Assembly (NCBI GenBank): GCA_964508225.1
Contig: CAZDRX010000002.1
Coordinates: 9,592-71,090, forward strand
Direction: 5' to 3'
Length of the DNA: 61,499 bases
Source of the DNA: an uncultured Candidatus Peribacteria bacterium
GTDB lineage: Bacteria; Patescibacteriota; Gracilibacteria; Peribacterales; Peribacteraceae
The first letter of the stretch is position 1. The number at the start of each line of letters is the position of its first letter. The position numbers were made by a program, and so were the translations under genes. Under the pieces are notes generated by a model. That model did no database searches, had not been told where the DNA came from, and worked only from the letters and a program-made list of their open reading frames with translations. Positions 9,597-51,908 of the stretch are shown in pieces.

Positions 9597-9636
9597 TCCA
9601 TGGCACGACGGCCTTTTTCGCGCTAGGATTTCGCAG

Positions 9637-24800: not shown

Positions 24801-27800
24801 AATCAGGTCGACGCATGGCCCGGAACCGACATCGACAACGCCGACTGGGACAAAGCCCAGACGCTCGTGCAGTGTCCGGTGCAGAACACGGATGTCTCCG
24901 TGGTGAAGACGGGTCCGGCAACGCTCAGCAATGACGCCGCCGTCGCCGTCTCGTACAAGCTCGTGGTGAAGAACAACACGGCCAACCCTGCTGCCAACGT
25001 CATCGTCTCCGATACCGTTCCCGCCGGTCTCACGATCACATCGGCCACCGCTCCGTGCGTCATCGCCGGCAACACTGTGACGTGCAACCTCGGCACACTC
25101 GCCGGAAACGCCACGACGAATCTCTGGATCTACACCACCGCTCCGGTGCGTGCGTACTGCTCCCAGACTATCGCCAACACGGGCACCGTAACCACGACCA
25201 CGACGGACACGAACCCGCAGAACAACACGTCCACGATCCAGACGGCGTTCACCTGCACGCAGCAGCACGCCCAGCTCTACATCACGAAGGATGTCGCAGC
25301 CACGACGGTCGCCGGACAGAACGTCACCTACTACTACACGCTCCAGAACACGAGCAGCTTCACCGCGAACGGCGTCAACGTGTACGACTACTACGTCGAT
25401 ACGGGTCTGAACCAGATCCCGCTTCCGTTCACGTTCGTCTCGGCGAGCGGCATCACGTGTCACGTCGATACGCCGAACAACCGCGTCGCCTGTGACCCCG
25501 TGAACCTCACGGCCGGTCAGATGATCAACTTCACGATCACGTTTCAGACGCCCACAGGTGCTCAGGTCTGTAACCAGACCTACACGAACCGCGCCGAGTC
25601 CATCGTCGGTACCGACCAGCAGACTCTCGATACGGACACGGCCGCCACACTGCTCCAGTGTCCGGCTCCGCAGTTCACCGTCGTAAAGTACGCTGATCTC
25701 CAGGTCATCTACCCCGGTGACACCATCACGTACTCGATCGTCACCACGAATGCCGGCACGCAGTCGCAGACGAGCGTTCGCATCGCCGACAATATTCCGG
25801 CCAACATGACGTTCGTGCCGACCGGTTCCACCGCAGGCTGCAGTGTGCAGGGAACAGCAGTCTTCTGCCCCGCCCAGACCTACACGGCCGGTCAGACCAC
25901 GACTACGACGCTCAAGTTCCAGCTTGCCGGAAACGCTCCGTGCGGCGGCAACTACCTCGTCGACAACGTCGCCGATGTCCAGCAGAACTCGGTCTCGCTC
26001 GTCTCGAGCAACCATGTCACGACGCCGATCGCCTGTGTCAGCGCACCGCAGTTCACCCTGACCAAGATCGGCCCGACGGTCGTCTCGCCCGGTGAGCTCA
26101 TGACGTACATCATCACCGCCACGAACATCGGTTCCACTGCCCAGAGCGGTATCGCCGTCTACGATGACGTTCCCGCAGGCACGACGTTCGAACCGAACGG
26201 TTCCACCGCGGGCTGCACGCTCATCGGCGGCGATCACGTGTACTGCGCCCAGCAGACCTACCAGCCCGGTCAGGTCGCCACCTTCACTCTCAAGTTCCGC
26301 GCCAACCAGAATGTCGCCTGTAATGCCATCATCCTGAACGAGGCCGAGCTCGCGCAGAACGGTAACGACTTCCTCTATTCGAATGAGGTCCAGACGCCCG
26401 TGACCTGCGCTTCGCCCAAGCTTGATATCACGAAGTCCGCTCCGCCTGTGAGTCAGGCCGGCGGCACCGTGACGTACACCTTTACGCTGCGCAACACGAA
26501 TGCAACCGTGACCGCCATCGACGTGAACACGTACGACTTCTTCATCGACGCCCTCGCGAACCAGATCCCGTCGCCGTTCACGTTCCTCTCGAGCTCGCTC
26601 GGAGGCGGCGCCTGTGTCTACGATCCGCAGATGGACCGCACGGTCTGTTCCATCGGTGACATGGCACCGAATCAGGTGATCACATTCACGATGACCTACA
26701 GCATTCCGAACACGCAGCAGATCTGTAACCAGACGGTCATCAATCAGGTCGATGCCTGGCCGGGTGCCGATGATCTGAACGCCGACTGGGACAAAGCCCA
26801 GACGACCGTCCAGTGTGCTCCGCAGGGTGCTGACCTCTCGATCCTCAAGTCCGGACCTTCGTCCGTGACGAAGGGCGGCAATGTCGTCTACACCCTCACG
26901 GTGAATAACCTCGGTCCTGCCACCGCCACGAACGTCGTGACGCACGACCAGATCCCGCAGGGTATGACCTTCGTCTCCGCATCCGGTCCCGCCTCCTGCG
27001 TACTCGCCAATAACAGCACGGAAGTCGCCTGTACGATCGGCAGCGTGACGGCAGGAACACCCGTTGTTCTCCAGTTGACGTTTGCCACCCAGCCCGCCGC
27101 ACCGAGTTGTGTCCCGTCCAGCGTCACGAACGTCGCTACGGTCACGGCTTCCACGACGGATCCGGTGATGACGAACAACCAGAGTCAGGTGGTGACCCAG
27201 CTCACGTGTCCGCTCCCGACGACCGCTGATCTCGCGATCGTGAAGACCGGTCCGGCCTCCGTGATCCGCGGCAATACGATCAGCTACTCCATCGTTGTCA
27301 GTAACTCCGGTCCGGCCACCTCTACGGGTGTCACGGTCACGGATGTCCTCCCTGCAGGTCTCCAGAACATCCAGATCTCGGGTGGGAACTGTGCGGTCAC
27401 CGGCAACGGTTCACAGGCCAGCTGCAGCATCCCGTCCATTGCAGCAGGAGCCTCCGTGACGATCACGCTCACGGCTACGGTCCCGACGATCCAGAACTGT
27501 ACGCCGACGGCGATCACGAACACCGCGAACGTCACGTCGGTCACGACGGATCCGAATGCGGGCAACAACCAGAGCCTCGTCGTCACCACGCTCAGCTGTC
27601 CGGCTGACACGAGCGCCGATGTCGGTGTCCTCAAGTTCGGCCAGACCTCCGTCGTCCGCGGCAATACGGTGACGTACTCCATCCTCGCCACGAACTACGG
27701 TCCGGGTACCGCGCAGAACATTACGATCACCGATCCGCTACCGCAGGGCTTCACCTTCGTCTCGGCCTCCGGTGTCCCGTGTGTCTCCCAGAACGGCAAT

Positions 27801-29483
27801 CTCACCTGCACCATCGCCTCGCTCCCGTCGGGACAGTCGAGTCCGGTGATCACCGCCACGTACAGCGTGCCCACGATCCCGAACTGCACGCAGACGACCG
27901 TGACGAACACCGCGACGGTTACGACCACGAGCACCGATCCGAACGCCGGCAACAACCAGAGCCAGGTACAGACCGCGGTGACCTGCCAGGCTCCCGCTCA
28001 GGCTGATCTCTTCGTCAACAAGACCGGCCCCGCCTCCGTTCAGTACGGTGCCAACGTCGTCTACACCGTGACAGCCACGAATGCAGGCCCGTCCTCCGCG
28101 TCGGGTGTGACGGTCTCGGACACGATTCCGCTCGGACTGACCTACGTCTCCGTCTCGGGTGCGACGTGCACCCTCGCGCTCCCGTCCGGCAACAATCCCA
28201 CGAACAACGGTTTCCTCTCCTGTGATGTCGGCACGCTTGCGTCCGGCGGCTCCAAGAGCTTCACGCTCACGTTCTCCACCGTCGCCGCCCAGACCTGCAC
28301 GCCGACGACCGTCACGAATCTCGTGAACATCAGCGAGAATGATGCCAACGTCACGGATCCGAACGCCGCGAACAACCAGAGTCAGGCAGTGACCAACCTC
28401 ACGTGCGCCTCCGTGAACGCCGACGTGGCGATCGCGAAGACCGGCCCGACATCGGTTCAGCGCGGTTCCACGCTCACGTACACGCTCACGGCCACGAACA
28501 ACGGTCCGGCCTCGGCCAGCAACGTGATCATCAAGGATCCGTACAACACGACCGAGCTCACCTTCTCTTCCGCCACCGGCGCCACGTGCTCCGTCGTCGG
28601 ATCGGAAGTCCAGTGCACGCTCGGTACGCTCACCTCCGGCCAGACGGTCACGGTTTCTCTCGTCTTCAACGTGAAGACCGTCACAGGCACGTGCTCGCAG
28701 ACCTCGATCCAGAACACCGCCACGATCACGACGGGTTCCACGGACACGGTCACGAGCAACAACACGAGCCAGACCATCACGACCACGCTCACGTGTAGCG
28801 GCGGTACCGTGAACGACATCTCGGTCACGAAGACCGACAACCGCACCACGGCGAACGTCGGTGAGACGCTCCGTTACAGCATCATCCTCACGAACTCGAG
28901 TTCGCAGGTCGTGAACAGTCTCCTCGTGACCGATACGGTTCCGTACGGTCTCACGATCCTCACCGTCTCCGACGGCGGTACGATTAGCAGTCAGCAGGTC
29001 CGTTGGACGGACATCTCTGTTCCCGCCAATTCCAGCCGCACCCTGTACATCGATGTGCAGGTGAGCAGCAGCAACACGAACAACACGGTGCTCCGGAATA
29101 CGGTCGACGTGAACGGCAAGCAGGCGACCGACGAGACGACGGTGTACGTGAACAACACGAATCCGCCGCCGCCGTACTACCCGCCGTACACACCTCCTCC
29201 GTACTACCCGCCGAACCCGCCTCCTCCGTACTATCCTCCGGTTTACAATCCTCCGACCACGGTTCCGCCGGTCTACTACCCGACGCAGCCCGTATACCCG
29301 CAGACGGGTACGAAGGACGGACAGCTCTACGCGCCGGCCACCGACAATGCATCACTCACGAAGGTGAAGGCTCCGGCCACCGCGGATGACAACGGATTCT
29401 CCGCCGTCTTCTACGCCACGATGCTCGCGATGTTCGCTGCCGGATCGGCGATCGCCAGCAGGCTCCTCGCGGGAAGCCTCTAA
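18897..29483 (+). CDS. Giant (3528 aa) secreted cell-surface protein: signal peptide, two novel Cys domains, about 24 Cys/Asp-rich Ca-binding-type repeats, a long DUF11 array, a Pro/Tyr-rich stalk, PQTG and a C-terminal TM anchor
   Basis: Single uninterrupted ORF (start GTG 18897 or ATG 18903). N-terminal signal FSAVALAAVLITQVNLG. I counted 24 C-x-(D/N)-G-x-D-(N/D)-D-x-D-(G/T) motifs, plus many ADLxIxKTGP...TYTxTVxNxGP...DxxPxGLTFVS units (DUF11/TIGR01451 pattern). Confidence 0.9.
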   Translation: MSMEFKKHFSAVALAAVLITQVNLGTIPSFEPLVQKTEAATESFTFGSDGAIRDYVNSLGSGLTPVQIVVNGDDAGGVDSDGATKQKICELKGYPQVVSHTTKSYASCGDNVIAFWNGSQFVWSHHNACARGNDRLNSLTCRRTIPNCQDGVDNDSDGAVDGADFSCQQNPNGDESGPKAQCQDGGDNDGDTYIDALIETNLGGNGNSQDFNQSQLVSFLNGLPPSLMPQPIVAGGTPNADQSTANKICDLAGYTTATITNVGHWASCHDNENVYWNGSQFVWEVDNACQKGNNNLDGLRCTGSRAQCRNGIDDDGDGKVDMADTGCASSNDTSEKQHDPSCSNPQDNDESPNDRKQCNDGVDNDADGKVDMADNGCTSPTDNTERNTVDLSIAFTSVPQTVQKGGPVNYSIFVANGGPDIANNVVFKMPIPVGLTYVPGTSYDRCVQQGTQIVCTNVDINPGQSGTHPINFTASLTLACNAQLQTSFNITSADTDSNPANNQTQNVTSTVVCAQCSDGTDNDNDGATDAADASCHSDLNPANAASYQPTKNDETNPKTACQDGLDNDGDGLTDLLDPGCSGKQDNSEKNPGGPQCDNGIDDDNDGRVDFPQDLGCSGPTDTSELNMQCSDGQDNDNDGAIDAADASCHTDLNPANQASYQPNDNDEANPKTQCQDGVDNDNDGLKDLQDPGCTDPQDNTENSEPAPNVDIMINGSNGPITVLAGTTLNIAWSSTGVQRCNTGTSNMPGWTSNQTLPVNGNAQFTATVSGTYGIQCSKTQTSNFVVQDAVAVVVTPAQCSDGTDNDADGAVDSADASCHSDLNPANAASYQPTKNDETNPKTQCQDGLDNDGDGLSDLQDPGCSGKQDNSEKNPNGAQCDNGIDDDNDGRVDFPQDTGCTSPTDTSELNMQCSDGQDNDNDGAIDAADASCHTDLNPANAASYDPNDNDELNPKTQCQDGLDNDGDGYTDAQDPGCANPQDNSEKNPSGPQCDNGIDDDGDTKVDFPQDTGCSGPTDTTEKNPQCSDGIDNDADGVDDSEDASCHTDLNVSNGASYDPNHNDELNPKTQCQDGLDNDGDGLLDLQDPGCSGKQDNDERNPNGPQCDNGIDDDNDGRVDFPQDTGCTSPTDTSELNMQCNDGQDNDNDGAIDAADASCHTDLNPANQASYQPTDNDELNPKTQCQDGLDNDGDTFIDAQDPSCSGNQDNTESPFDQPSISLSSVSINGCNVTVNYVKQFQTCAHLITTQGSQILHTQNIFCNMSGSVTSQISEFIVPPFASGLSVKLCNGNNYNDCSAPVTVSGGGTCNPSVQCSDGLDNDADGAVDSADASCHSDLNPANANSYQPNDNDELNPKTQCQDGLDNDGDGLSDTQDPGCANPQDNSEKNPSGAQCDNGIDDDNDGKTDFPQDPGCSGPTDTSETDPVAQADLFIVKSGPNQITRGSVIAYTVTAYNLGPNTAQGVTINDPIPAGLTFNAGLSDPSCVQNGNNILCNNTTLAMNQNKTVAIAFNVPTIPNCTQGSLQNIATVSASTTDPNSANNQSQPVITTVLCPTVSICSDGLDNDHDGLIDLQDPGCANNPNDPNEGDGPADLQISMTGPATVDGNQNATYTVTVKNNGPDAATTPFSFRDPIPAGVTFVPGSSSPNCAVSGSDVVCSGITLSVGQQITYTVTFNAPVPVASEPSFLQRLFGVESALAATCGGSFQNQVFLNPAQPDPNSGNNQSSSITTTVTCQPQPPQFTLTKLTSNEIQANEVLTYIITATNTGNSAQNNIRIADLIPAGLTFTTNGSTAGCVQQGTSVFCPAQTFQPGQSVSFTLKFTANANNPCDMDIVNTASIQQNTVTFGQSNQTHTHFYCTTPKLDINKSAPPVSTAGGTVTYTYTLKNTSTTQTAIDVHVFDFYIDPLANHIPSPFTFVSSSLGGACSYDAPNDRVNCDLGNLAPNQLVTFTLTFSIPNNPVLCNTTIINQVDAWPGTDIDNADWDKAQTLVQCPVQNTDVSVVKTGPATLSNDAAVAVSYKLVVKNNTANPAANVIVSDTVPAGLTITSATAPCVIAGNTVTCNLGTLAGNATTNLWIYTTAPVRAYCSQTIANTGTVTTTTTDTNPQNNTSTIQTAFTCTQQHAQLYITKDVAATTVAGQNVTYYYTLQNTSSFTANGVNVYDYYVDTGLNQIPLPFTFVSASGITCHVDTPNNRVACDPVNLTAGQMINFTITFQTPTGAQVCNQTYTNRAESIVGTDQQTLDTDTAATLLQCPAPQFTVVKYADLQVIYPGDTITYSIVTTNAGTQSQTSVRIADNIPANMTFVPTGSTAGCSVQGTAVFCPAQTYTAGQTTTTTLKFQLAGNAPCGGNYLVDNVADVQQNSVSLVSSNHVTTPIACVSAPQFTLTKIGPTVVSPGELMTYIITATNIGSTAQSGIAVYDDVPAGTTFEPNGSTAGCTLIGGDHVYCAQQTYQPGQVATFTLKFRANQNVACNAIILNEAELAQNGNDFLYSNEVQTPVTCASPKLDITKSAPPVSQAGGTVTYTFTLRNTNATVTAIDVNTYDFFIDALANQIPSPFTFLSSSLGGGACVYDPQMDRTVCSIGDMAPNQVITFTMTYSIPNTQQICNQTVINQVDAWPGADDLNADWDKAQTTVQCAPQGADLSILKSGPSSVTKGGNVVYTLTVNNLGPATATNVVTHDQIPQGMTFVSASGPASCVLANNSTEVACTIGSVTAGTPVVLQLTFATQPAAPSCVPSSVTNVATVTASTTDPVMTNNQSQVVTQLTCPLPTTADLAIVKTGPASVIRGNTISYSIVVSNSGPATSTGVTVTDVLPAGLQNIQISGGNCAVTGNGSQASCSIPSIAAGASVTITLTATVPTIQNCTPTAITNTANVTSVTTDPNAGNNQSLVVTTLSCPADTSADVGVLKFGQTSVVRGNTVTYSILATNYGPGTAQNITITDPLPQGFTFVSASGVPCVSQNGNLTCTIASLPSGQSSPVITATYSVPTIPNCTQTTVTNTATVTTTSTDPNAGNNQSQVQTAVTCQAPAQADLFVNKTGPASVQYGANVVYTVTATNAGPSSASGVTVSDTIPLGLTYVSVSGATCTLALPSGNNPTNNGFLSCDVGTLASGGSKSFTLTFSTVAAQTCTPTTVTNLVNISENDANVTDPNAANNQSQAVTNLTCASVNADVAIAKTGPTSVQRGSTLTYTLTATNNGPASASNVIIKDPYNTTELTFSSATGATCSVVGSEVQCTLGTLTSGQTVTVSLVFNVKTVTGTCSQTSIQNTATITTGSTDTVTSNNTSQTITTTLTCSGGTVNDISVTKTDNRTTANVGETLRYSIILTNSSSQVVNSLLVTDTVPYGLTILTVSDGGTISSQQVRWTDISVPANSSRTLYIDVQVSSSNTNNTVLRNTVDVNGKQATDETTVYVNNTNPPPPYYPPYTPPPYYPPNPPPPYYPPVYNPPTTVPPVYYPTQPVYPQTGTKDGQLYAPATDNASLTKVKAPATADDNGFSAVFYATMLAMFAAGSAIASRLLAGSL
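19330..23650 (+). repeat. Intragenic array of Cys/Asp-rich (thrombospondin-type-3 / MopE-like) repeats, including roughly 0.85-kb near-identical DNA super-modules
   Basis: Super-modules start at about 20442, 21291 and 22833. Long near-identical stretches exist, for example gacggtgccgtggactccgcggacgc..agctg.cac at about 21318 and about 22860. Confidence 0.85.
23170..29150 (+). repeat. Intragenic DUF11-domain array with duplicated two-domain super-repeats
   Basis: 24111-24877 and 26046-26819 encode closely similar roughly 255-aa blocks (PQFTLTK...DKAQT.VQC). Related half-blocks lie at about 25270-26045. Confidence 0.8.
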
Positions 29484-33289: not shown

Positions 33290-33366
33290 TCAGGCATTGG
33301 GCTCTCTGTCGGGAAGAGTCGAACGCCTTGCGGTTATTACAAACGACTATAGAATAATTGTCCACT

Positions 33367-34491
33367 ATGACGGTTCCCCGCGGTCAGCCACCGGAAATTC
33401 TCGCCAAGGACTCGCTCCCGTATCGGCAGCACGAGCCCCAATTCCAGACGCTTCTCAGCGAAGCGCGCGACATCGGATGGATGCACAGGAGCATCCGCGA
33501 AGACGTGATGACGCAGGCGGGGATCGTCTGCGACCGCCCCGAAGGGGACGACCGCGCATCGGCATCCCGCATGTACTTCGGCCGTGCCAAGAACGTCCTC
33601 GATCAGGAATTCCATGTCGTAGGTCCCGAGATGCCCGAACTCCTCGCCGCCCAACGCTCTCTTGTCGAGCACATGCTCGCCGTCCGCTTCAGCATCGGAG
33701 AGATGGCGATGTCCGGTGTCGATCCGAAGAAGGCAGTCGACACCGCCGATATCTATCAGGAACTCATCCGGGATCTCGAGGAGCACTGCCGGGAGAACGG
33801 TCTTCCTTCGCTTCTGCCGAACCTCTACCTGCCGAGCTCGCTCTACGCGCAGCTCCGCAAGGTTCCTGCGTATGCGGAGAAGAGTCCTGCCGTCGTGGAG
33901 ATGTACAACAAGCTCACAGTGCTGTGTTCCAACCAGACCAAGCACCTTCACGGCGTGACGACGGCCATGGCGTTCCATGATATGGACAGCGAGTCGGTCG
34001 CAGCGCTCGATCTCGCTTCCGAGATCCGCAGCGTGCCGATTCTTGAGATGTGCCGCCAGAATCCTCCGTTCGCGGAAACACTCGTTGTTGCACTCTCCAA
34101 GAGCGGCAAGCATGAGCGTGTTGTCGAGATCGGCAAAGAATTCTTCCAGCAGACGGACCGTCCGTTCCTCATCGAGAAGTATCTCCGGTCCCTCATGATT
34201 CTCGGCCAGACCGACCGTGTCTTCGAGATCCTCACACAGCATGCCTCCGCGATTCCGCGTCATCACTCCGGCACCGAGAAGGCTGCCGTGGACGTGTGCA
34301 TCGAAACAGGATGGATTCTGTACGGAGAAGGCCGCTACGCGGACATCCTCACGATGATCGATGCGGCACTCTTCTACCATCTCGACCCCAAGGGAAATCC
34401 CGACATCGTCGCACTCTACCGTCAGGCGGTCGAGGAGCTGGGCGATGACGATAGGATCGCCGCCTTCAAACGAAAGATGGACGAAGCGTAG
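33367..34491 (+). CDS. Hypothetical protein (helical, possibly TPR-like)
   Basis: The track ORF starts at TTG 33358; ATG 33367 lies 11 nt after a TAGAAT box (33350-33355). No recognisable catalytic motif. Confidence 0.55.
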   Translation: MTVPRGQPPEILAKDSLPYRQHEPQFQTLLSEARDIGWMHRSIREDVMTQAGIVCDRPEGDDRASASRMYFGRAKNVLDQEFHVVGPEMPELLAAQRSLVEHMLAVRFSIGEMAMSGVDPKKAVDTADIYQELIRDLEEHCRENGLPSLLPNLYLPSSLYAQLRKVPAYAEKSPAVVEMYNKLTVLCSNQTKHLHGVTTAMAFHDMDSESVAALDLASEIRSVPILEMCRQNPPFAETLVVALSKSGKHERVVEIGKEFFQQTDRPFLIEKYLRSLMILGQTDRVFEILTQHASAIPRHHSGTEKAAVDVCIETGWILYGEGRYADILTMIDAALFYHLDPKGNPDIVALYRQAVEELGDDDRIAAFKRKMDEA

Positions 34492-34547
34492 ACACCTGTT
34501 CGTGCCTGAACATTCGTACCATTCCTGACAACATGAGGAGTATGGGG

Positions 34548-34578
34548 AGCCTTTGAAAATGCCGAAAAAAGGCTTTTG
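34548..34578 (+). terminator. Intrinsic terminator-like hairpin
   Basis: AGCCTTT, 13-nt loop, AAAGGCT followed by TTTTG. Confidence 0.4.
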
Positions 34579-34587
34579 AAACGGCTT

Positions 34588-34626
34588 TTGACATATATTG
34601 ACATATTACTAATTATATTTTAAAAT
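34588..34626 (+). promoter_or_regulatory. Promoter with tandem TTGACATAT direct repeat; TTGACA-N17-TAAAAT
   Basis: TTGACATAT at 34588-34596 and 34598-34606. The -10 box TAAAAT (34621-34626) sits exactly 17 nt after the second TTGACA. Confidence 0.5.
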
Positions 34627-34645
34627 GCTCTCCAAAGATTTTCCT

Positions 34646-35932
34646 ATGACCGAGAATCTCCCTCCAGAGCCGGCTGGTGAGCCCGTCCAGAAACCTGTGA
34701 CGGATGCCGCCATGAGCGTACACCGCTTCGAGATGCCGCTGAAGCCGACGGACGTCTACCGTGCCCTTGCCATCACGCGTGGAGACGTCGATCTGGCGAT
34801 GTTCAAGGATCAGGCAACGCAGCATGGTGACAAGCGTGCGAAGGAAGCCTCCAAGAGATACGCCGTTCCCGACGCGGGCACATCGACGGAAGTCGAGCGC
34901 GTGCACGCACTGGCAGAACGCATCCTTGGCCTTCTCAGCATGAGCCGCTACCGCCGCGGACCGATCCAGTTTGTTCAGGAAGGTAAGCCAGTTTTTCTTC
35001 AGAAAATCTCCGATGCCATTCTTCAGGAAAAGCCGGTTGAGCTCATTATGAGTTTCTACGGCCTGAAGGTTCAGAATCCGCTCAAGACGTACGGTACGGA
35101 CGGCAGCGAGGTCGACGTTTCGGAGATGGCATCACTCCTCCGTTTCTACGAAATCACGCAGGCCATCGGCAAGATGTACGGCCCCGGCGCCGAGTTTCAC
35201 ATCGCCTGTGACGGACGAAAGTACGCGGAGGCACTCGGATACACCAATGCGCAGGCCAGCGGTTACTACCGAAACTTGAATGCACTCTGTGCTGCGCTCG
35301 GAATCCAGCAGTCCGTCCACCTCCCCGACGAGGCGGATTTCTATCCTGAAGATCATCAGGAGAGAACCGCGACACATCTGCACCGTATCCGTACCGCCTA
35401 CGCGCAGAATGACCCTGCGGTCACCGGTTTCGTGACGAAGCTCCGTGCCAGTATGTGTCTCTCCATGCCTGTGAATACCGGAGAGATCGATGTTGAACAG
35501 CTGCGCTTCGCATTCTCGGCGATGACCGATACGGAGCTCTGTGCCCATTGCCCTGCCGCTCTCGAGGTCCGTCGTCACCTTCTCGATCGTTCGCTCGATT
35601 GCACCCTCAAGTACGTCGCGGTGTATGACGCCGTGAAGGAAGCGGGTGTCCTCGAGCAGATCGCACCTGCAGCGGTGCGTGCCACCGTGCATCCCAAGCC
35701 CGGACAGATCGGTTTGTATGCAGTCAATGAGCGCACCAACGACGTCTTCCCGCATCATGGACAAGGAGTCGTTCAGACGGGGGGAGCCGGTATGACCATC
35801 GATAATGTCCGCGTCCGTTTTCGCGCCGACCTCGAGCGTCAGGATCCGCAATTCTGCGCCATCTGTCTGCCGAAAGATCGTTACCCCTTCTCTGACGAAC
35901 AGCATCCTTTCCTCATTGCCCCCAACGTCTGA
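34646..35932 (+). CDS. PvcA/IsnA/Dit1-family protein (isonitrile-synthase-like, PF05141-type)
   Basis: KPVELIMSFYGLKVQNPLKTYG..VDVSE....YGPGAEFHIACDGRKYAEALGY......GYY aligns by eye with the PvcA/IsnA core (PIxFVLPAFPxKSPNPxKVLG..PDxxE...YxPGAxxxICSDGRVFSDLVGV...Y). The later VRATVHPKPGQIG...PHHG matches LRLSIHPQ...IG...PWHG. The first ATG (34625) overlaps the -10 box, so ATG 34646 is preferred. Confidence 0.5.
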   Translation: MTENLPPEPAGEPVQKPVTDAAMSVHRFEMPLKPTDVYRALAITRGDVDLAMFKDQATQHGDKRAKEASKRYAVPDAGTSTEVERVHALAERILGLLSMSRYRRGPIQFVQEGKPVFLQKISDAILQEKPVELIMSFYGLKVQNPLKTYGTDGSEVDVSEMASLLRFYEITQAIGKMYGPGAEFHIACDGRKYAEALGYTNAQASGYYRNLNALCAALGIQQSVHLPDEADFYPEDHQERTATHLHRIRTAYAQNDPAVTGFVTKLRASMCLSMPVNTGEIDVEQLRFAFSAMTDTELCAHCPAALEVRRHLLDRSLDCTLKYVAVYDAVKEAGVLEQIAPAAVRATVHPKPGQIGLYAVNERTNDVFPHHGQGVVQTGGAGMTIDNVRVRFRADLERQDPQFCAICLPKDRYPFSDEQHPFLIAPNV

Positions 35933-36954
35933 TGCTCCAGTCTCATCCCTCACAGGTCCGCTTCACGGACGAGATGACTCTCGACCGCATGCGCGATGCG
36001 ATCAGGCAGGGGCCTGATGGAATCGAGAAACAGCATCTGGTCACGGCGATGTTCGACAGGTCGAGGCTTCGCATCGGCGGCGTTCTTCATCAGTCTGCTC
36101 TCCTTCCGCCACTCGAGACGATGCAGCCGGCGGAGTGGGATGTCCTGCAGTCACAGGTCCAGTCCGCCATCACGGATGTGATTCGTCTTCTGCTGCAGAC
36201 GTTCGATCTCTCCTCCAAAGAATGGAAGAACGCACCCGCCATCTGGGAAATGCTCTCATTCGATCAGCAGGTTTTACGCAGTCCTGTCACACCGCTTCCG
36301 CAGGCTCTGCGCGGCGCAATCGATACCGTCAGGCCGATACTGGAAGTGGAAGGACTCACCGTGGATTTGGAGGAGCTTGCGAATGATCTCGATGAAGTCA
36401 TCCATCAGACTTCCGCACGTCGTAGTGTGATCGAAGGGACTCTTCGTGCCGCTACGGGAGCGGAAATCAGCGACACGCCGATTCTTCATACTGATGGTAT
36501 CCGCAATCAGGTCATCACCGGCCTCCGACAGAGGATCCATGTCGAATTGGAAGCAGCCGACCTCATTCTTGCTGAGCTTGCGAGCGAAGCAATCTGCAAA
36601 GCCTGCCATCCTCAGGAAGCAACACCGTCCTCTCCGTTCAGACTGAGCGCTGCGGATGTAACACGCGTCACAGGTGAAGAGGCGATGCACTCAAACATCG
36701 GCGATGTCTACCTCGTGCGGAGTGCCAACGTGCAGTCCCGTGGGGATCACTTCATCGTCATCACCGGAGGGCTCGTCCAGAAACCTCACGGCATGAGACC
36801 GCAGGACATGTCCTTCCCCGTCCCCGAAGGAATGATCTCACCTCTCAGCGCGTATCCGGAAAGCGAAACACTGGTCCTCCTCAAGCTCGACACCGCCTCC
36901 TCTCAGGCGTTCTACGCCGAGTTCGACGTCCCTGAACAGTTCCGCCATTCCTGA
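35932..36954 (+). CDS. Hypothetical protein (340 aa), translationally coupled to the PvcA-like gene
   Basis: TGATG stop/start overlap at 35930-35934. Coding-like composition with no recognisable domain. Confidence 0.6.
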   Translation: MLQSHPSQVRFTDEMTLDRMRDAIRQGPDGIEKQHLVTAMFDRSRLRIGGVLHQSALLPPLETMQPAEWDVLQSQVQSAITDVIRLLLQTFDLSSKEWKNAPAIWEMLSFDQQVLRSPVTPLPQALRGAIDTVRPILEVEGLTVDLEELANDLDEVIHQTSARRSVIEGTLRAATGAEISDTPILHTDGIRNQVITGLRQRIHVELEAADLILAELASEAICKACHPQEATPSSPFRLSAADVTRVTGEEAMHSNIGDVYLVRSANVQSRGDHFIVITGGLVQKPHGMRPQDMSFPVPEGMISPLSAYPESETLVLLKLDTASSQAFYAEFDVPEQFRHS

Positions 36955-36974
36955 GTTTTCTTCCCCTTCTCTTT

Positions 36975-37646
36975 ATGCCGATGCAATACATGGAACCGAG
37001 CAAGAGACCCGAAGAGCTCCTTGAGCTCATGTCGACGCCGGAGCAGCCGGCGCGCTCACGCCTCTACCGCCCAGGCTTCGATCACATGATGCGTATGCTC
37101 CCGAAGATCGACGCACGTGATCCGGATCCCGCCGAACAGGTGGAGCTCACCCGTCGCGTGATGGATTCCATCGCGCACGAAGTCACGGCACGCATCGATC
37201 AGCTCGATCTCCCGGAGATTCCGGACGGAGAATTCGGCCGCGTGATCCTCGCCATCGAAGAGCCGCAGGTGCTCGAAGGAGGAGAACTCCTCCCCGGCAC
37301 CGAAGTCGTGCTTGCGCTCTGGGGCAAGGGTTTCCAGAGCCCCGTCCATGGTCATGCTCCCGGCTACATTCACGAGGCGCTCATCAGCGGTGCATTCGAC
37401 GTTCACCTCTACAAGCAGCAGGGCAATCCTGAAGACCGTCTGGTTGTTCCGGATCGCACGATCGTACAGAGCACGCCTGAGACCTTCTACTCCCAGTTCG
37501 TGCAGGAAGTCGGACAGACCACCCGCTCCGCGCTCATCCACAATTTCACGGCCCGTGAGCCGAGCAGGAGCCTCCACTATTTGCCCGAGCACGTCCGCGA
37601 CGGCCGCAACAACCGCTTCACGGTCGTTTCCCCTTCCACGAAGTAA
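36975..37646 (+). CDS. Cupin-fold protein resembling the cysteine dioxygenase type I (CDO) family
   Basis: LALWGKGFQSPVHGHAPGYIHEALISGAF..HLY and later SALIHNF....SLHYLP resemble the CDO pattern (W.pGq.SpIHDH....G.l.E..Y ... iH.v.N....SLH.Y). Confidence 0.4.
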   Translation: MPMQYMEPSKRPEELLELMSTPEQPARSRLYRPGFDHMMRMLPKIDARDPDPAEQVELTRRVMDSIAHEVTARIDQLDLPEIPDGEFGRVILAIEEPQVLEGGELLPGTEVVLALWGKGFQSPVHGHAPGYIHEALISGAFDVHLYKQQGNPEDRLVVPDRTIVQSTPETFYSQFVQEVGQTTRSALIHNFTAREPSRSLHYLPEHVRDGRNNRFTVVSPSTK

Positions 37647-37648
37647 CG

Positions 37649-38431
37649 ATGTCTGCCACCCCTCTCATCCTCGTCTGTGACGATGCCGGCTTCGAGAGTG
37701 TCGACCGCGGGATCCGCACACTGGTCGAACACACCGGCCAGCCCGTCTCCGCCGAGTACATGATCGAGCAGGAGGGCGCGGCCGAGCGTGCGAGAGCCAT
37801 CGCCGAGATCGGCCTCGTCTCACGCGGGCTCCACTTCGAGCTCATGAACATCTCGGATGCCGACCGCTTCCGCCTCGGAAAGGAATTGCTCGCCGGTGGA
37901 CAGTTCCTCGGTGAACTTGCGCAGATTCAGCAGCGGGGAACGGCAGACGCCCGCAAGCAGCTCAGAATGTTTCAGGATACGCAGGGCATCAATCCCGCGC
38001 ACATCAGTACGCACGGCAACTTCAATACGGATGCACACGGCCGCGTGCTTCCGTGGTGGAAAGATCTCATGGAGGAGATGTTTGATGGGCAGGTGCCGCC
38101 GATGCAGCTCGATATTCCGCATGTCCGCCACAATCTCTACAGCTGGAACGTCCCTCCCACCGAGAGGCCGCCGAGAAACGAGGAGGAATTCAGCGATCAG
38201 CTCGCACTCGCGGATCTGAAGGGTCACGCCGCCGAATTCGTCATGCATCCGGCACTCGTGCGTCCGGGAGATGCGGATCTTCAGATGCTCTTCACCGCGG
38301 AGATGCGGCAGCGTGATCTCTGGTCGGCGATCAGGCTCATCAACTCCGGCGTCATCGAACGTGCAGGATTCGCGATTGTTCCGGTCGACACACTGCACAC
38401 GTCAGACGCTCAGCTGGAGAAAGCCGCCTAA
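37649..38431 (+). CDS. YdjC/ChbG-like (carbohydrate deacetylase family) protein
   Basis: N-terminal LILVCDDAGFESVDRGI, then GLHFEL, HISTHGNF and EFVMHPA, matching the YdjC family pattern (NADDFG...GI, GLHL, HxDSHxH, HPG). Confidence 0.5.
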   Translation: MSATPLILVCDDAGFESVDRGIRTLVEHTGQPVSAEYMIEQEGAAERARAIAEIGLVSRGLHFELMNISDADRFRLGKELLAGGQFLGELAQIQQRGTADARKQLRMFQDTQGINPAHISTHGNFNTDAHGRVLPWWKDLMEEMFDGQVPPMQLDIPHVRHNLYSWNVPPTERPPRNEEEFSDQLALADLKGHAAEFVMHPALVRPGDADLQMLFTAEMRQRDLWSAIRLINSGVIERAGFAIVPVDTLHTSDAQLEKAA

Positions 38432-38436
38432 GGCGC

Positions 38437-38820
38437 TTACTTGCCGCGGAGTCTGCTCAGCAGCTCCGGGTTTCTGAAGTAGCCGCTGACCGTGAGGAGA
38501 GCGAGGACGACAACGATCGGGGCGTACTCCGCAAGCGGGACGCCGTGCGTCATATTCGTGGCGAGAGCACCGCCGTAGTAACCGACCATGAGCACGAAGC
38601 CCACCGTGGAGGTCCGCGGGATGAGGAAGAGGACTCCGATGATGAGTTTGGCAGCGCCGAGCGGATACTCCATCCCCGTGATCCCCACCCTCGTGATGAA
38701 CTCGACGACCTTCGGGTCGTTCATGGGCATGATGAATTCCATCACGCCGCTGAAGAGCGTGAGCGCGGCCACGAGGATCGCGCAGGTCCAGCCGACGATG
38801 GAGGAGAGACGGAACGTCAT
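38437..38820 (-). CDS. DoxX-like small membrane protein
   Basis: 127 aa, 4 TM helices, with AAKLIIGVLFLIPRTS and GGALATN segments typical of DoxX-like proteins. Confidence 0.4.
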   Translation of the reverse strand: MTFRLSSIVGWTCAILVAALTLFSGVMEFIMPMNDPKVVEFITRVGITGMEYPLGAAKLIIGVLFLIPRTSTVGFVLMVGYYGGALATNMTHGVPLAEYAPIVVVLALLTVSGYFRNPELLSRLRGK

Positions 38821-38859
38821 AGAGAAGAGAGGAAGGGGATGGAAGAAGGATATCAGGTG

Positions 38860-39684
38860 TTACGCGGGTTTGCGGAGGAGGAATTCGTTGTTGAGGAGCC
38901 CGTTCGTGCACGTGAGGTTCTCGAGTGAGAAGCCCCGCTTCTTCGCGAAGTGGAAAATCTCGGCCACGGTGGCGTACTCGTACGGGTAGCCGCCGAGCCA
39001 GTCTTTGATATCGATCCTCCACGACATGCCGCGGCTCAAGTGATTCTTGTGTCCGCGGATCACGGTCACGGGGTTCCGGAGTGTGAGCACGTAGAGAATG
39101 CAGAGCACGCTCATGAGGAAGAAGTCGATCACGTTCTGGAGCAGCCACGGCAGCGACGAGTAAATCTTCTTCTCGATCACCCACATGGATGACGGGCCGA
39201 AGCGGCCGTCGCTGTAGAACGCGAAGCCGTCGGCTTTGTTGTAGATCGCGATGTAGGCGCAGCCCCCCGGTTTCACGAGCGAGAGCGCGTTCTCGATCGC
39301 TTTCCACATGTTGCCCGTGTGATGGAGCACACCCCACGAGTAGACGATATCGGCCTTCGGGAGTTTGCTCACGAACGCGTCATCGAGAATGGAGCCCTCG
39401 GACACAGACCAGTTCGCGGGGGAGCCCTCCTTCAGCTTCATCGCTTCATTGCAGGCTACACTCTCGGGATCGTAGTCGAAGCTGATCACCTCTTTCGCGT
39501 GCAGGCGGTGCGCGGCCACGGAGACGATGCCGCTGCCCGCGCCGATGTCGAGGAACGTCTTGCCGGTGAGATCCTGAGCCCCAAGGAAGCTCTGGAGAGA
39601 TTTCATGACGAGAGCCGTACGCTCGGGCGTGAGGTACTGCGCGTTGAACTTCTGCCAGTTGCGACCGAACGAGAACATCTTCAT
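38860..39684 (-). CDS. Class I SAM-dependent methyltransferase with a C-terminal membrane-associated extension
   Basis: Start at MKMFSFGRNW. Motif I is FLDIGAGSGIVS and post-I is ISFDYD. The upstream part of ORF 38860-39831 is Arg/Pro-rich and not coding-like. Confidence 0.7.
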   Translation of the reverse strand: MKMFSFGRNWQKFNAQYLTPERTALVMKSLQSFLGAQDLTGKTFLDIGAGSGIVSVAAHRLHAKEVISFDYDPESVACNEAMKLKEGSPANWSVSEGSILDDAFVSKLPKADIVYSWGVLHHTGNMWKAIENALSLVKPGGCAYIAIYNKADGFAFYSDGRFGPSSMWVIEKKIYSSLPWLLQNVIDFFLMSVLCILYVLTLRNPVTVIRGHKNHLSRGMSWRIDIKDWLGGYPYEYATVAEIFHFAKKRGFSLENLTCTNGLLNNEFLLRKPA

Positions 39685-39715
39685 GGCGGGCAGTGTAGCA
39701 GGGCTTTCCGGAGGC

Positions 39716-41626
39716 TTACAGCGCCTTGTAGATCCTCGGGAATGTCTCCTTCGTGGCTTCTCCACCGTCGAACACGAGCTTCCAGCTCTTGGGGTTGCAG
39801 GTACGGCTGAACCACGCGGCACGTTCGGCATTGATGACGACGAGATACGTGATCTCCAGTTCGCGGAAGGCGGCGGGAGAGCACGAGCGTTCGATGTCCG
39901 CGATGAATTTGAGTTTCTCGGGCGGGAAGCCGTCGCCGTAGAGCGGGCCGATGGCGAAGCGTCCGGTGTTCGTGGTGAAGGTCACCTGATCGAAGCCCGG
40001 CCGGACGTGGAAGTAATCCTTGAGCGTCGTATTCGCCTTCACCCACGGGACGAGCTTCTCGGAATCCGAGGGGATCATCTTCGCGAAGAGCGGGAGGATT
40101 TCGAAGTGGCGTGTCGGAAAGACCGAGCACATCGCGAAGTACGTGGCGGCGGGCAGGAGCATGGAGACAAGAACCGCGACCGCACCCCATCGTATCCACT
40201 TCTTCGTGGACACGAAGAGGGTCTCGCTGAACATCACGCCGATGAGCAGCGAGAAGAACGACGTCGCGCCCCAGAAGAGCCGGATCGCTTCGTGCGGTCT
40301 CGGGGAGAACTTGGTGAGGAGCGGAACCAGGAAGAAGGTGAGACCGATGCCGAGGAGCAAGGTCAGCTCCGGTGCGCGGCGGATGGACCGGACGCAGTAC
40401 CAGCCGAAGATGGGGAGCAGGAAGAGCGGCAGGCCGAAATCCCGGAAAAAGAGCCATTCGCCCACATAGATCCTGCGTGCGCCCCACGGTTCGAAGTACG
40501 TCGTGAGTTGGGGCATGAGGAAGCCGGCACTGTGCCCGCCGCCAAGCAGGCTGAGGATTCCTCCCTGCACAACCGTGATCACCGCCGACGGCACGAGGAT
40601 CCAGAGCGCGGTCGTGAGTGCGTCACGGAAGGGGAGCCGTGTGTTGCGTGCGATGAGGAGGACGAGGAGGAAACCGACCATACCCGTGCCGAACGCGAGC
40701 GTGCCGATTTCCATCGTGAGCGAGAGCGCGCCGCACAGGAGGATGCTTGAGAGGATCCAGAGTGTGCGCTCGCGCCGCTTCACGCATGCTTCCGTGAAGC
40801 AGTAGAGGAGTCCGTACAAAAGCGCATAGCCGATCGCGCTCGAACGGTGGTTGAAGAGGATCGAGATCGGATTCGTGATGGGGCTCCAGGTCATGTGTGC
40901 GAGCTCGCGGAAAGGCCCGTCAATCGGCACATGCAGGACGAACGCGCGGTAGAGATCGATGACGAGCGGCACGACGTTGATCCAGATGAGTCCCGTGCCG
41001 CCGATGGCGAGCACCGATCCCCAGCCGGCTGCCGTCCACGATCCTGTGATACCGAAGAGGAGCGCCGCGACGAAGAAGACGACCGCGATGGCACCCATGA
41101 ACGGTTGCGGGTTGTAGCCCGTGAGCATATCGACGCCCGTGACGGACTGGAGCGAGGCTACGAGGATCTCGGGTCCGTAGTGGTATCGAAGTCGGGACCA
41201 CGGCCCCGTCACTTCCATCGGCGGCAGGTTGCCCTCCGCCATGGTGGCCACAAGCGGGGATCGTCCCCAACTGAGGAAATCGCTCGGTACTACACGTGCT
41301 TGCGTGAAACCGACGAGTGTTGCGGTCACGAGGAGTGCGAGGAGAACGAACTTCGGCGTCTTCACGAGAGCAGTCTCCCGCTTCGGGAGACGGAGCATGA
41401 GCAGGCTTCCGAAGGCGAGGAGTGCGATAGGGGTGGCAAATGCGGCGCGGTGCGGGAGCAGGAAGCCGAGCGCGTTCGTGCTCTCCATGACGAATGCGGG
41501 TCCGAGTAGTGCACCGAAGCCCACAGCCGCGGCTTGTGTGCGTACCTTGAGGACGCGCACGGCGAAGAGATATCCCGCTGCCGCCTGCACGTAGACATAG
41601 AGCACGGCGAGGAACATCGGGAACAT
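39716..41626 (-). CDS. Large polytopic membrane protein, probable GT-C-type glycosyltransferase
   Basis: 636 aa with more than 12 TM helices plus a C-terminal soluble domain. It lies immediately downstream of a GtrB/DPM1-like GT2 gene (41627), the usual partner arrangement. Confidence 0.45.
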   Translation of the reverse strand: MFPMFLAVLYVYVQAAAGYLFAVRVLKVRTQAAAVGFGALLGPAFVMESTNALGFLLPHRAAFATPIALLAFGSLLMLRLPKRETALVKTPKFVLLALLVTATLVGFTQARVVPSDFLSWGRSPLVATMAEGNLPPMEVTGPWSRLRYHYGPEILVASLQSVTGVDMLTGYNPQPFMGAIAVVFFVAALLFGITGSWTAAGWGSVLAIGGTGLIWINVVPLVIDLYRAFVLHVPIDGPFRELAHMTWSPITNPISILFNHRSSAIGYALLYGLLYCFTEACVKRRERTLWILSSILLCGALSLTMEIGTLAFGTGMVGFLLVLLIARNTRLPFRDALTTALWILVPSAVITVVQGGILSLLGGGHSAGFLMPQLTTYFEPWGARRIYVGEWLFFRDFGLPLFLLPIFGWYCVRSIRRAPELTLLLGIGLTFFLVPLLTKFSPRPHEAIRLFWGATSFFSLLIGVMFSETLFVSTKKWIRWGAVAVLVSMLLPAATYFAMCSVFPTRHFEILPLFAKMIPSDSEKLVPWVKANTTLKDYFHVRPGFDQVTFTTNTGRFAIGPLYGDGFPPEKLKFIADIERSCSPAAFRELEITYLVVINAERAAWFSRTCNPKSWKLVFDGGEATKETFPRIYKAL

Positions 41627-47541: not shown

Positions 47542-47707
47542 AGGCGCATCGTACACAGCGGGACTGAAAGAGGGAATGGCGCAGATGCCCCTCCTCGAAA
47601 AACACCTTGAGACACAATCTGAATCCGATCCGTAGCGATTGCTTGACATCACACAGCGCAGAAGGAAAGATCCCCAACATACTTTCTTTTCCCTCCTCTT
47701 TCATTTT

Positions 47708-48517
47708 ATGAACACAAAACTCCTGTCCGCAGTCGCTGGTGTGGCCATGTTCCTGAACGCAACCACTGCGCTTGCCAGCCCTCCACGTGCCGATCTCCAG
47801 GTGCAGTTGCAGGCACCCTCCAGCGTACAGATCTCCACAGCTACCACGTACACAGCCACGGTGAAGAACCTCGGCCCGGCCACGACGAATGTGAGCCTGG
47901 TGATCGAGTTCCCTCTGACGGACACCAGCCCGACAGTCGCCATCCTTGGCACGGTCACGGAATCAGACTCCCGCTGTTCCATCGTATCGAACAAGATCAC
48001 GTGTGCCTTCAGCGGCCTGAAGAAGAACAATTCAGTGACCGTCAATTACTTGTACACGGCTCCTGTATCGACCAAGTCGCTCGGGATGAAAGCAATCGCG
48101 AGTTCGTCCGTTACCGATCCGAACACGGGCAACAATATGGCGACGGTTGTGCCGAACCTCGTGTATCCGGTTCGCAACATCACCTCCGCAACAGTCCTGA
48201 ATTCTCACTGTACGGGCACGAATCTGACATCGTACTTCGAGTGCGCGCTCTTCCCGAGTTCTATCTCCACGCACATCGCTACGTTCAATGCGGATCAGAC
48301 CATCACGCTCACAGAGCCCGGTTACGCCGGTACGTGGTCCCAGAATGCGGCCAAGACGACGCTGTTCTTTGAGTACACGGAGGCGAGTGGCTCCGGCAGC
48401 TCTGCGATCGCTCAGTTCAATGGTTTCGCCATCAATGGCAGCAACTGCTTCGATGGTCTGACGACGTTCATCCCCGCCACGACGTACGTCAGTCCGTACC
48501 GCGTCTGTCTTCAGTAA
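47708..48517 (+). CDS. Secreted DUF11-domain protein
   Basis: Signal peptide MNTKLLSAVAGVAMFLNATTALA, then ADLQVQLQAPSSVQISTATTYTATVKNLGPATTNVSLVIEFP (DUF11 pattern). Confidence 0.65.
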   Translation: MNTKLLSAVAGVAMFLNATTALASPPRADLQVQLQAPSSVQISTATTYTATVKNLGPATTNVSLVIEFPLTDTSPTVAILGTVTESDSRCSIVSNKITCAFSGLKKNNSVTVNYLYTAPVSTKSLGMKAIASSSVTDPNTGNNMATVVPNLVYPVRNITSATVLNSHCTGTNLTSYFECALFPSSISTHIATFNADQTITLTEPGYAGTWSQNAAKTTLFFEYTEASGSGSSAIAQFNGFAINGSNCFDGLTTFIPATTYVSPYRVCLQ

Positions 48518-48533
48518 ATACGTCTATGTTCAA

Positions 48534-48565
48534 AAAGCCCTGCGAACGTCGTGGGGCTTTTTTTG
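48534..48565 (+). terminator. Intrinsic terminator
   Basis: AAAGCCC-loop-GGGCTTT followed by TTTTT. Confidence 0.65.
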
Positions 48566-48795
48566 TAACTACGGAGAAGTGGTGGAGCATTCAGGGTTAA
48601 TTCCGAACCATCTCCGTTTTTTACTCGGGATGTAACAGATATTCTAGAAATGCTCCTAAAGCTCGATTACTCGCTGCATACACTTATAGAACTGCTGGAG
48701 AAACCCCGAGATATAAAACGATTTGCGATCCTCTAACTCGGATGCGTCAAAGAGCTTTCGGAAGTAATTCCGAACTTTGTGGATAATAGAATATA

Positions 48796-51273: not shown

Positions 51274-51383
51274 AACAAACCTAAACTTCCGAACTTGGAG
51301 TTAACCCCAACATAAAGCCATGAATGCCATTCGAAGCTAAAAATGCACCAATATGACAAAAACCCGCTTTCGAACTTTTTCAA

Positions 51384-51410
51384 AACGGCCTATAAGGCCG
51401 TTATTCTCTA
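51384..51410 (+). terminator. Intrinsic terminator after the SEC-C gene
   Basis: AACGGCC-TATAA-GGCCGTT followed by ATTCTCT. Confidence 0.5.
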
Positions 51411-51454
51411 TAAAATCGCAATTCTGTGCGTTTGAATTTCGGTGAATTCCCGAA

Positions 51455-51861
51455 TGGTGGAGATGCCGGGAGTTGAACCCGGGTCCAACGTGTACGCCGA
51501 AGGTCCATACGATCATGTTCCTTTCGTTTTCTCATCCCGTCAGGAAGGAACAAAGAGAGGGAGAGAGATGTGACGCAGTATTCGGGATCAACGTCGCGTC
51601 ACGCGATGATCCAACCTCGCTAGTGACGCCACTCCAATCCAGCGAGGATCAAGAGGGTAGCGTGGTCCGAATTGAATCAGACCTTAGGCATAGGCCGGAG
51701 CCAGCCTTGCCGAAAGATCGGCAAAGATGTTCTCGAGAGCCTTAGCCATTGTGCTGGTTTTGGCAGCTATAGTTGCTCAGCGTGGGTAACGGGTACAGAG
51801 AGCAAACCCGGATCGAGACACAAGCGACGCAGATTCACGCTGTCGAAAGCCTGTCATCCCC
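51455..51861 (-). ncRNA. ssrA: tmRNA (transfer-messenger RNA)
   Basis: Minus-strand 5' end is GGGGATGACAGGCTTTCGACAGCG. The 3' end is GGACCCGGGTTCAACTCCCGGCATCTCCACCA (T-arm plus acceptor plus CCA). The internal tag ORF ends ...LAPAYA-TAA. Confidence 0.9.
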
Positions 51862-51899
51862 AAAAGAGAAAAGCGGAGATGTGAGAGAGCAGAGTGATC

Positions 51900-51908
51900 A
51901 TTATAGCA
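51900..51908 (-). promoter_or_regulatory. Extended -10 promoter (TGCTATAAT) for ssrA
   Basis: The reverse complement of attatagca gives TGCTATAAT. It lies about 38 nt upstream of the mature tmRNA 5' end, consistent with a processed leader. Confidence 0.45.

Follow-up and report, generated by a model that had tools for sequence, protein, structure and literature searches.

Isonitrile natural products are rare and bioactive, with activities in metal binding, antibiosis and virulence, and few types of enzyme make them. In the described systems of the PF05141 family, the first enzyme acts on an amino acid and is partnered by an oxidative enzyme: the isonitrile synthases PvcA and IsnA by the Fe(II)/2-oxoglutarate (Fe/2OG) dioxygenases PvcB and IsnB, and yeast Dit1 by the cytochrome P450 Dit2. 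Here we analyse a four-gene operon led by a PF05141 gene on a 61,499-nucleotide stretch of DNA (hereafter the window) from an uncultured Candidatus Peribacteria bacterium (contig CAZDRX010000002.1, positions 9,592 to 71,090). A preliminary description of the window had proposed that the operon encodes an undescribed small-molecule pathway. Across related loci the PF05141 gene recurs beside a cupin related to thiol dioxygenases and a small C-terminal domain (CTD) that moves between fusion partners. At roughly even odds (probability about 0.5), we read the operon as a compact small-molecule pathway in which PF05141-type isonitrile or formamide formation would be combined with oxidation by the cupin and CTD in place of PvcB, IsnB or Dit2.

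The operon and its PF05141 enzyme

The layout proposed earlier, four forward-strand open reading frames (ORFs) with short gaps and a TGATG overlap, was borne out throughout. Gene 1 (34646..35932, +; 428 aa) encodes a long-type PF05141 enzyme, gene 2 (35932-36954, +; 340 aa) a protein of two domains, gene 3 (36975..37646, +; 223 aa) a 3-His cupin related to thiol dioxygenases and gene 4 (37649..38431, +; 260 aa) a YdjC-family protein of the metal-dependent deacetylase type. The first junction, gtcTGATGctc, is a 1-nt overlap; genes 2 and 3 are 20 nt apart, and the junction of genes 3 and 4, TAAcgATG, leaves a 2-nt gap. The start of gene 1 is ambiguous between 34625 (435 aa) and 34646 (428 aa), and that of gene 3 may in truth be the second ATG, at 36981, as homologues start with MQY or MKY.

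Gene 1 is, to judge from its alignments, a divergent but clear member of PF05141 and not a PvcA orthologue. A Pfam search matched it to PF05141 (DIT1_PvcA) at 53.7 bits (cutoff 26.4, E 2.9e-14), with residues 122-385 aligned to profile positions 2-260 of 273, and its sequence relatives in the PDB were isonitrile synthases only (9dhm, 9dh4 and PvcA, 3e59; E about 1e-7 to 1e-6). Across 13 divergent sequences of the long and short types, the columns of K141, N144, G153, D157, E160, G181, D189, G190, Y207, H349 and P369 were invariant and those of R345 and H371 near-invariant. The family motifs on which the original assignment leaned are thus kept and, with conservation as the measure of catalytic residues, the catalytic core looks intact. 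Identity to short-type PF05141 enzymes is ~16-22%, and an N-terminal extension of ~110 aa together with insertions marks gene 1 as a member of a ‘long-type’ clade. The NCBIfam equivalog for PvcA (NF045653), which has a cutoff of 600 bits, aligned with residues 115-221 alone and scored 34.4. Neither an Fe/2OG dioxygenase nor a P450 was found by Pfam and NCBIfam searches of the operon and the scanned flanking genes, and none was seen beside the PF05141 gene at related loci. The absence of the usual partner, remarked on in the preliminary description, therefore holds for the operon and its immediate neighbours.

A putative promoter, TTGACA-17 nt-TAAAAT (34598..34626, +), matches the consensus at 11/12 positions, and a promoter-like alternative, TTGACA-17-AATTAT (34588-34616, +), overlaps it. 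Both sigma-70-like sites of the 6.6 kb from 33300 to 39900 sit in the 150-nt AT-rich spacer upstream of gene 1. Their number, two, equals the shuffle mean of 2.0 and is not above expectation, so it is placement and match quality that favour the promoter suggested earlier. No intrinsic terminator was predicted for the operon region. A convergent DoxX-like gene closes the operon 5 nt 3′ of gene 4; it belongs to a pair on the reverse strand (38437-39831, −), a DoxX-like membrane protein and a class-I S-adenosylmethionine-dependent methyltransferase (Methyltransf_23/12), that is not kept beside the module at other loci.

A recurrent set of PF05141 enzyme, cupin and C-terminal domain

Gene 3 is the most conserved protein of the operon set. 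Its AlphaFold2 model, built with 30 homologues, reached a predicted local distance difference test score (pLDDT) of 94.1 and has a cupin fold; an 85-residue helical extension precedes the core at the N-terminus. The top 20 Foldseek matches were all thiol dioxygenases of the cysteine dioxygenase (CDO) or mercaptopropionate dioxygenase (MDO) kind, at E 4.7e-8 to 6e-6 and with template modelling scores (TM) of 0.4-0.65. The leading structural matches comprise B. subtilis CDO, 3-mercaptopropionate dioxygenase, rat and human CDO and plant cysteine oxidase (PCO), at E 5e-8 to 1e-5. When the family profile was run against PDB sequences, all 20 matches were CDO1, the best at a marginal E of 0.006. Comparison with human CDO1 by hhalign gave an E of 7.6e-4 and a probability of 25%; the central part of the CDO1 sequence used was confirmed by the profile-versus-PDB alignment. 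No Pfam family, CDO_I included, matched gene 3 at E up to 0.1, and no NCBIfam model matched it.

The residues expected around a thiol dioxygenase metal centre are largely recognizable. In the hhalign alignment, WGKGFQSPVH125GH127 of gene 3 falls on WGEGHGSSIH86DH88 of CDO (motif WGxGxxSxxHxH), and S199-L-H201 on S153-L-H155. The third ligand, H189, is equated with CDO H140 from its spacing to the SLH motif, the hhalign alignment being inexact at that point. Where CDO has Cys93, at the canonical cupin Glu position, gene 3 has Ile132, and the metal site is therefore assigned to the 3-His type. R89 stands at the place of the carboxylate-binding Arg of CDO. The Ser-His-Tyr triad of CDO (S153-H155-Y157) is partly kept, gene 3 having Y202 at H+1 and Leu at H+2. 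Among 106 representatives, conservation was 0.99 for H125, H127 and H189, 0.98 for R89 and 0.97 for H201. Fold, profile matches and 3-His pattern agree, and the kinship with CDO that had been proposed is supported at the level of the superfamily, short of strict family membership.

The AlphaFold2 model of gene 2 (pLDDT 87.7) resolves a long-helix N-terminal domain (N-domain; residues 1 to ~232, 35932..36627, +) and a small alpha/beta CTD (residues ~233-340, 36628..36954, +). The whole protein had no significant match in Pfam, NCBIfam or PDB sequences, or by Foldseek against the PDB and BFVD; the CTD alone matched nothing in the PDB or Pfam. Its earlier label of ‘orphan’ is apt for the protein as a whole and misleading in so far as it implied a single unit, since it comprises two domains, and relatives usually carry the CTD as a fusion to the cupin. 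The N-domain is restricted to Peribacteria-type (clade A) loci, is a separate gene in one of them (L001) and has conserved motifs that include EWKNxPxIWEMLSF and DxVIHQTxxRR. A CxxC-like motif lies ahead of the CTD in most gene 2 homologues.

The CTD proved to be far more widely fused than gene 2 would suggest. Its profile matched 154 proteins among 1.84 billion representative sequences, and these, together with the homologues found earlier, made up 187 proteins that were classified by custom hidden Markov models. Cupin-CTD fusions accounted for 99 proteins and stand-alone CTDs for 56; the N-domain-CTD arrangement of gene 2 was found in 11, a CTD fused to PF05141 at either the N- or the C-terminus in 5, a cupin followed by two CTDs in 2 and a cupin alone in 11. 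No other domain was attached to the CTD among the 187. Across 166 CTDs, H273 was conserved in 165, G287 in 164, S264 in 163 and R289 in 162. The idea of the CTD as a lysine-bearing carrier was weakened by the same comparison, in which K284, its sole conserved Lys, was replaced in 18/166 domains while S264, H273 and R289 were near-invariant. From these architectures the CTD appears to be mobile between fusions and obligately associated with the cupin and the PF05141 enzyme.

Homologues of gene 1 are few and come from groundwater-type metagenomes and from metagenome-assembled genomes (MAGs) of Candidatus Peregrinibacteria and Peribacteria. Three loci (L005, L026 and L028) have the same four genes in the order of the window, and L011 has genes 1-3 without YdjC; L027 has genes 1-3 on a contig that ends inside gene 3, so that YdjC is not assessable there. 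The order is gene 3, gene 1, gene 2 in L003, and L001 combines gene 1 with a free N-domain and a cupin-CTD fusion, while L013, L015 and L009 carry only a PF05141 gene and a cupin-CTD fusion. A CTD-PF05141 fusion occurs without a cupin in L007. A PF05141 gene lay adjacent, on the same strand, in 19/19 distinct loci with a gene 3-type cupin and usable flanks. Gene order varies and the surrounding genes differ at every locus, which marks the PF05141/cupin/CTD set as a self-contained module. Neighbourhoods, CTD fusions and co-occurrence together argue that these three form the functional core, with the N-domain and YdjC as lineage-specific additions. The partner set proposed from the window thus does recur in orthologous neighbourhoods, as a core of three and not as a conserved unit of four. 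Both points on which the preliminary description had staked itself, a PF05141 match for the first gene and neighbourhoods conserved between loci, were checked and found. One locus also has an IF-2B family gene (of the MtnA/ribose-1,5-bisphosphate isomerase family; L013 94-618) directly upstream of its cupin-CTD and PF05141 genes, a neighbour of possible interest because PF05141 enzymes use pentulose phosphate.

Gene 4 was correctly placed in the YdjC family, matching PF04794 at 44.3 bits (cutoff 29.7) over profile positions 2-249 of 266; it had no match in NCBIfam or among PDB sequences. Four of the five close sub-clade loci with enough downstream sequence carry YdjC, namely the window and the three loci of identical gene order, in which the gene follows the cupin. 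It is absent from L011 and from all more distant loci examined. On this distribution YdjC is an accessory of one close sub-clade.

Distribution and genomic surroundings

The module is rare. Only three of the GTDB species representatives have its cupin: two are Candidatus Peribacteria and the third is a MAG labelled ‘Deltaproteobacteria’. The closest loci are labelled Candidatus Peribacteria, which supports a host from the candidate phyla radiation (CPR), a group of minimal-genome bacteria; the preliminary description had seen the genome as metabolically minimal. Nor is the module confined to this genome, a point on which the preliminary description needs revision: phage-like contigs carry it as well, and so does a lineage with a deviant genetic code. 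This lineage is represented by L017 and L018, on contigs of 180 kb and 55 kb with a GC content of 0.39. Four in-frame TGA codons interrupt the cupin-CTD and PF05141 genes (L017 6001-7991, and also L018), and all four fall at conserved Gly positions, for example LALW*EGF where LALWGxGF is invariant. This placement implies that the source reads UGA as Gly (code 25, of the Gracilibacteria/Absconditabacteria type) and that the module is intact; the possibility that these are pseudogenes was ruled out on the same grounds.

A second clade consists of a short PF05141 gene (~290-300 aa), a cupin-CTD fusion and a gene for a protein of ~108 aa with two Cys, the cupin being missing from L007. The contigs span 7-220 kb, apart from L022, whose contig ends after 2.6 kb, and are low in GC except for L008 (GC 0.63). 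They are filled with short co-directional ORFs and show PHROG matches to split phage RNA polymerase beta/beta′ subunits, helicase, sigma factor and DNA ligase; a T5orf172 gene occurs on one of them. By these features they look like large phages. Searches of 50,697 GenBank phages, IMG/VR, PHROGs and PADLOC brought up nothing that matches the module itself.

The ~108-aa protein has two invariant Cys (C-x10-C) and lies directly 3′ of the short PF05141 gene in eight phage-like loci (L007 5434-5754; L008 ~9282-9617; L019 7918-8241; L020 4197-4526; L021 9265-9600; L022 1899-2228; L023 7871-8194; L030 8233-8571). Neither Pfam nor PHROG yields a match to it, and Peribacteria-type loci lack it. Its homology to the gene 2 N-domain was rejected after direct comparison. 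The N-terminal extension of gene 1 was likewise rejected as a degenerate CTD or as kin of the N-domain, the cupin or the two-Cys protein (hhalign E at least 0.045, probability at most 1.2%). Some phage-like loci have a small extra ORF between the cupin-CTD and PF05141 genes: that of L008 (8124-8384, 86 aa) shows a weak match to PnuC-like nicotinamide mononucleotide transporters, and that of L030 (7013-7375) is 120 aa long.

Elsewhere in the window, several features are of independent interest. A 1419-aa class-I aminoacyl-tRNA synthetase (52704-56963, −; tRNA-synt_1, Anticodon_1, DUF5915) contains a histidine-phosphatase inserted between its catalytic and anticodon-binding parts, an unusual fusion (His_Phos_1, 271 bits in two stretches, the best at residues 717-902). 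A low-GC island at ~48000-51900 (0.38-0.43 against about 0.60) includes an 825-aa ORF with a C-terminal SEC-C motif (48796-51273), directly beside the tmRNA gene (51455-51861, −), and looks like an element integrated at tmRNA. A giant ORF of 3528 aa (18897-29483, +), with DUF11 repeats in 15 stretches (712 bits), probably encodes a surface protein, and a smaller DUF11 protein is encoded at 47639-48517.

Proposed chemistry, rival readings and known systems

The scheme that we favour, in its substrates, step order, product and role, builds on the family memberships, folds, conserved ligands, fusions and co-occurrence described above. Gene 1 would combine the amine of an amino-acid-like substrate with a carbon from a pentulose phosphate donor and so form an isonitrile or, as in Dit1, an N-formyl product, an assignment made because of the established chemistry of PF05141. 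The substrates of isocyanide synthases (ICSs) extend beyond tyrosine and tryptophan: CrmA is described as making a valine-derived isocyanide (PMC9381783). Working with the CTD of gene 2 as an auxiliary subunit, the gene 3 cupin could then use O2 to oxidise either the substrate or the isonitrile intermediate, a step that would fill the slot taken elsewhere by PvcB, IsnB or Dit2. Three CDO-like His, an Arg and a second-sphere Ser/His make a thiol- and/or carboxylate-bearing substrate, such as a cysteine derivative, a reasonable guess. The N-domain of gene 2 may be a scaffold or a regulator, and YdjC may deformylate or deacylate in a tailoring or recycling step. A glycosylated product, which the preliminary description had entertained, found no support and was set aside: the operon has no glycosyltransferase, and YdjC is of the hydrolase type and is not kept outside one sub-clade.

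Several observations weigh against this scheme. Isonitriles bind Fe(II) strongly, and inhibition of a 3-His iron centre by one is conceivable, which leaves the order of steps uncertain. Gene 1 falls far under the PvcA equivalog cutoff and, given its extension and insertions, may catalyse a different reaction. The link to CDO is remote: the Pfam CDO model is not matched even at an E of 0.1, the hhalign probability is only 25% and the Tyr is displaced. Long-type PF05141 genes also occur without a cupin in two loci (L010 and L029), and all members of the module are known from their genes alone.

Among other explanations, the module could modify a protein, with the CTD or one of the small clade-specific partners (the N-domain or the 108-aa two-Cys protein) as substrate or carrier, the PF05141 enzyme acting on a protein amine and the cupin working like PCO or 2-aminoethanethiol dioxygenase (ADO). 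Such PCO and ADO enzymes oxidise protein cysteines, and PCO enzymes are among the structural matches of gene 3. The CTD behaves as a carrier might, being fused to either enzyme at either end, standing alone in 56 proteins and occurring in tandem in 2; the two-Cys protein directly follows PF05141 in its eight loci, and most homologues of gene 2 have the CxxC-like motif ahead of the CTD. Nevertheless, no Cys is invariant in the CTD, 18/166 domains have another residue in place of its one conserved Lys (K284), and S264, H273, R289 and G287 resemble a ligand-binding or catalytic site. The two-Cys protein and the N-domain are moreover mutually unrelated and clade-confined, and L009, L013 and L015 have neither, which leaves protein modification an unlikely account. 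We hold it similarly improbable that gene 1 performs some other sugar-phosphate/amine chemistry, for example the salvage or detoxification of a pentulose phosphate derivative, with the cupin as a non-thiol dioxygenase (C-C cleaving, like acireductone dioxygenase, ARD, or like Dke1) and YdjC as a carbohydrate deacetylase. That reading would suit the great divergence of gene 1 (34 bits to the PvcA equivalog and ~16-22% identity to the short type), the many reactions that 3-His cupins catalyse, the membership of YdjC in a carbohydrate-deacetylase family and the IF-2B gene directly upstream in L013. Gene 1 nonetheless keeps the residues invariant in 13 divergent PF05141 sequences, and to our knowledge the only characterised activities of that family are isonitrile and N-formyl formation. 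The sugar-related neighbours, too, are not conserved, YdjC being limited to one sub-clade and IF-2B to a single locus.

The phage-like contigs suggest yet another explanation, in which the module is a weapon or counter-defence of phages or mobile elements, its product a toxic metal-binding isonitrile directed at a host or competitor, and the Peribacteria copy domesticated or horizontally acquired. The cassette of cupin-CTD, short PF05141 and small protein does sit on contigs with PHROG matches and in one case T5orf172, and flanking genes differ at every bacterial locus. The phage nature of these contigs is itself deduced from their gene content, however, and the GenBank, IMG/VR, PHROG and PADLOC searches returned nothing. 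We therefore put little weight on a weapon as such; it is in any case compatible with the small-molecule pathway that we favour and does not exclude it.

In a wider and more tentative form, about which we are doubtful, PF05141, cupin and CTD would constitute an unrecognised, horizontally mobile three-component machine that large phages share with CPR bacteria (Peribacteria and the UGA=Gly lineage). It would follow neither of the known routes, vinyl-isonitrile or dityrosine; one possible product is an isonitrile derived from a non-aromatic amino acid and sulfur-oxidised or otherwise tailored by the cupin. The boldest version has the isonitrile or formamide formed on a protein-borne amine, with the CTD as carrier. 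CPR bacteria are thought to be nearly devoid of specialised metabolism, and a Peribacteria biosynthetic operon shared with phage-like elements would bear on the interplay of episymbionts, viruses and hosts. From the tight association of a PF05141 enzyme with a CDO-like cupin and a new domain, one would predict chemistry beyond the characterised isonitrile pathways. The CTD and the N-domain, neither of which has an assigned function, are also tied to the module by the fusion pattern, and their roles are now testable.

Full-text literature searches returned no report of a PF05141 enzyme or ICS paired with a cupin or CDO, nor of ICS or isonitrile clusters in CPR bacteria, in keeping with the first description of the pathway as undescribed. 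A precedent for the oxidative step is SbzM, a cysteine-oxidising cupin in altemicidin/SB-203208 biosynthesis (PMC6331615), which by its description shows a cupin dioxygenase carrying out an unusual cysteine oxidation in a small cluster; the SbzM pathway is not known to contain a PF05141 enzyme. Gene 3 resembles the CDO, MDO, PCO and ADO enzymes in its cupin fold, WGxGxxSxxHxH motif, third invariant His, upstream invariant Arg and SLH motif. It differs from them in lacking a Pfam CDO match, in the Ile at the Cys93 position, the Tyr shifted by one residue and the 85-residue N-extension, and in being tied to PF05141 and the CTD.

The closest relatives by gene content are PvcA/PvcB, IsnA/IsnB and AmbI1-3, in which, as here, a PF05141 gene with its motif residues kept adjoins, and is apparently co-transcribed with, a gene for an O2-dependent enzyme of the non-haem-iron type. 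Those systems use a TauD-type 2OG enzyme as partner, this one a 3-His cupin from the lineage of the thiol dioxygenases, and the CTD adds a third obligatory component for which they offer no equivalent. What sets gene 1 apart from PvcA is non-orthology (34 versus 600 bits) and its 110-aa N-extension, and the hosts here are CPR bacteria and phage-like elements. Dit1/Dit2, the yeast pathway of N-formyl-tyrosine and dityrosine, likewise joins a PF05141 enzyme to an oxidative tailoring enzyme in a two-step route that starts from an amino acid, but its partner is a P450 in place of a cupin, and the present system is prokaryotic or viral. What the Peribacteria operon shares with all of these is the logic of a PF05141 enzyme coupled to an oxidase; what is new is the class of the partner, the third obligatory component and the hosts.

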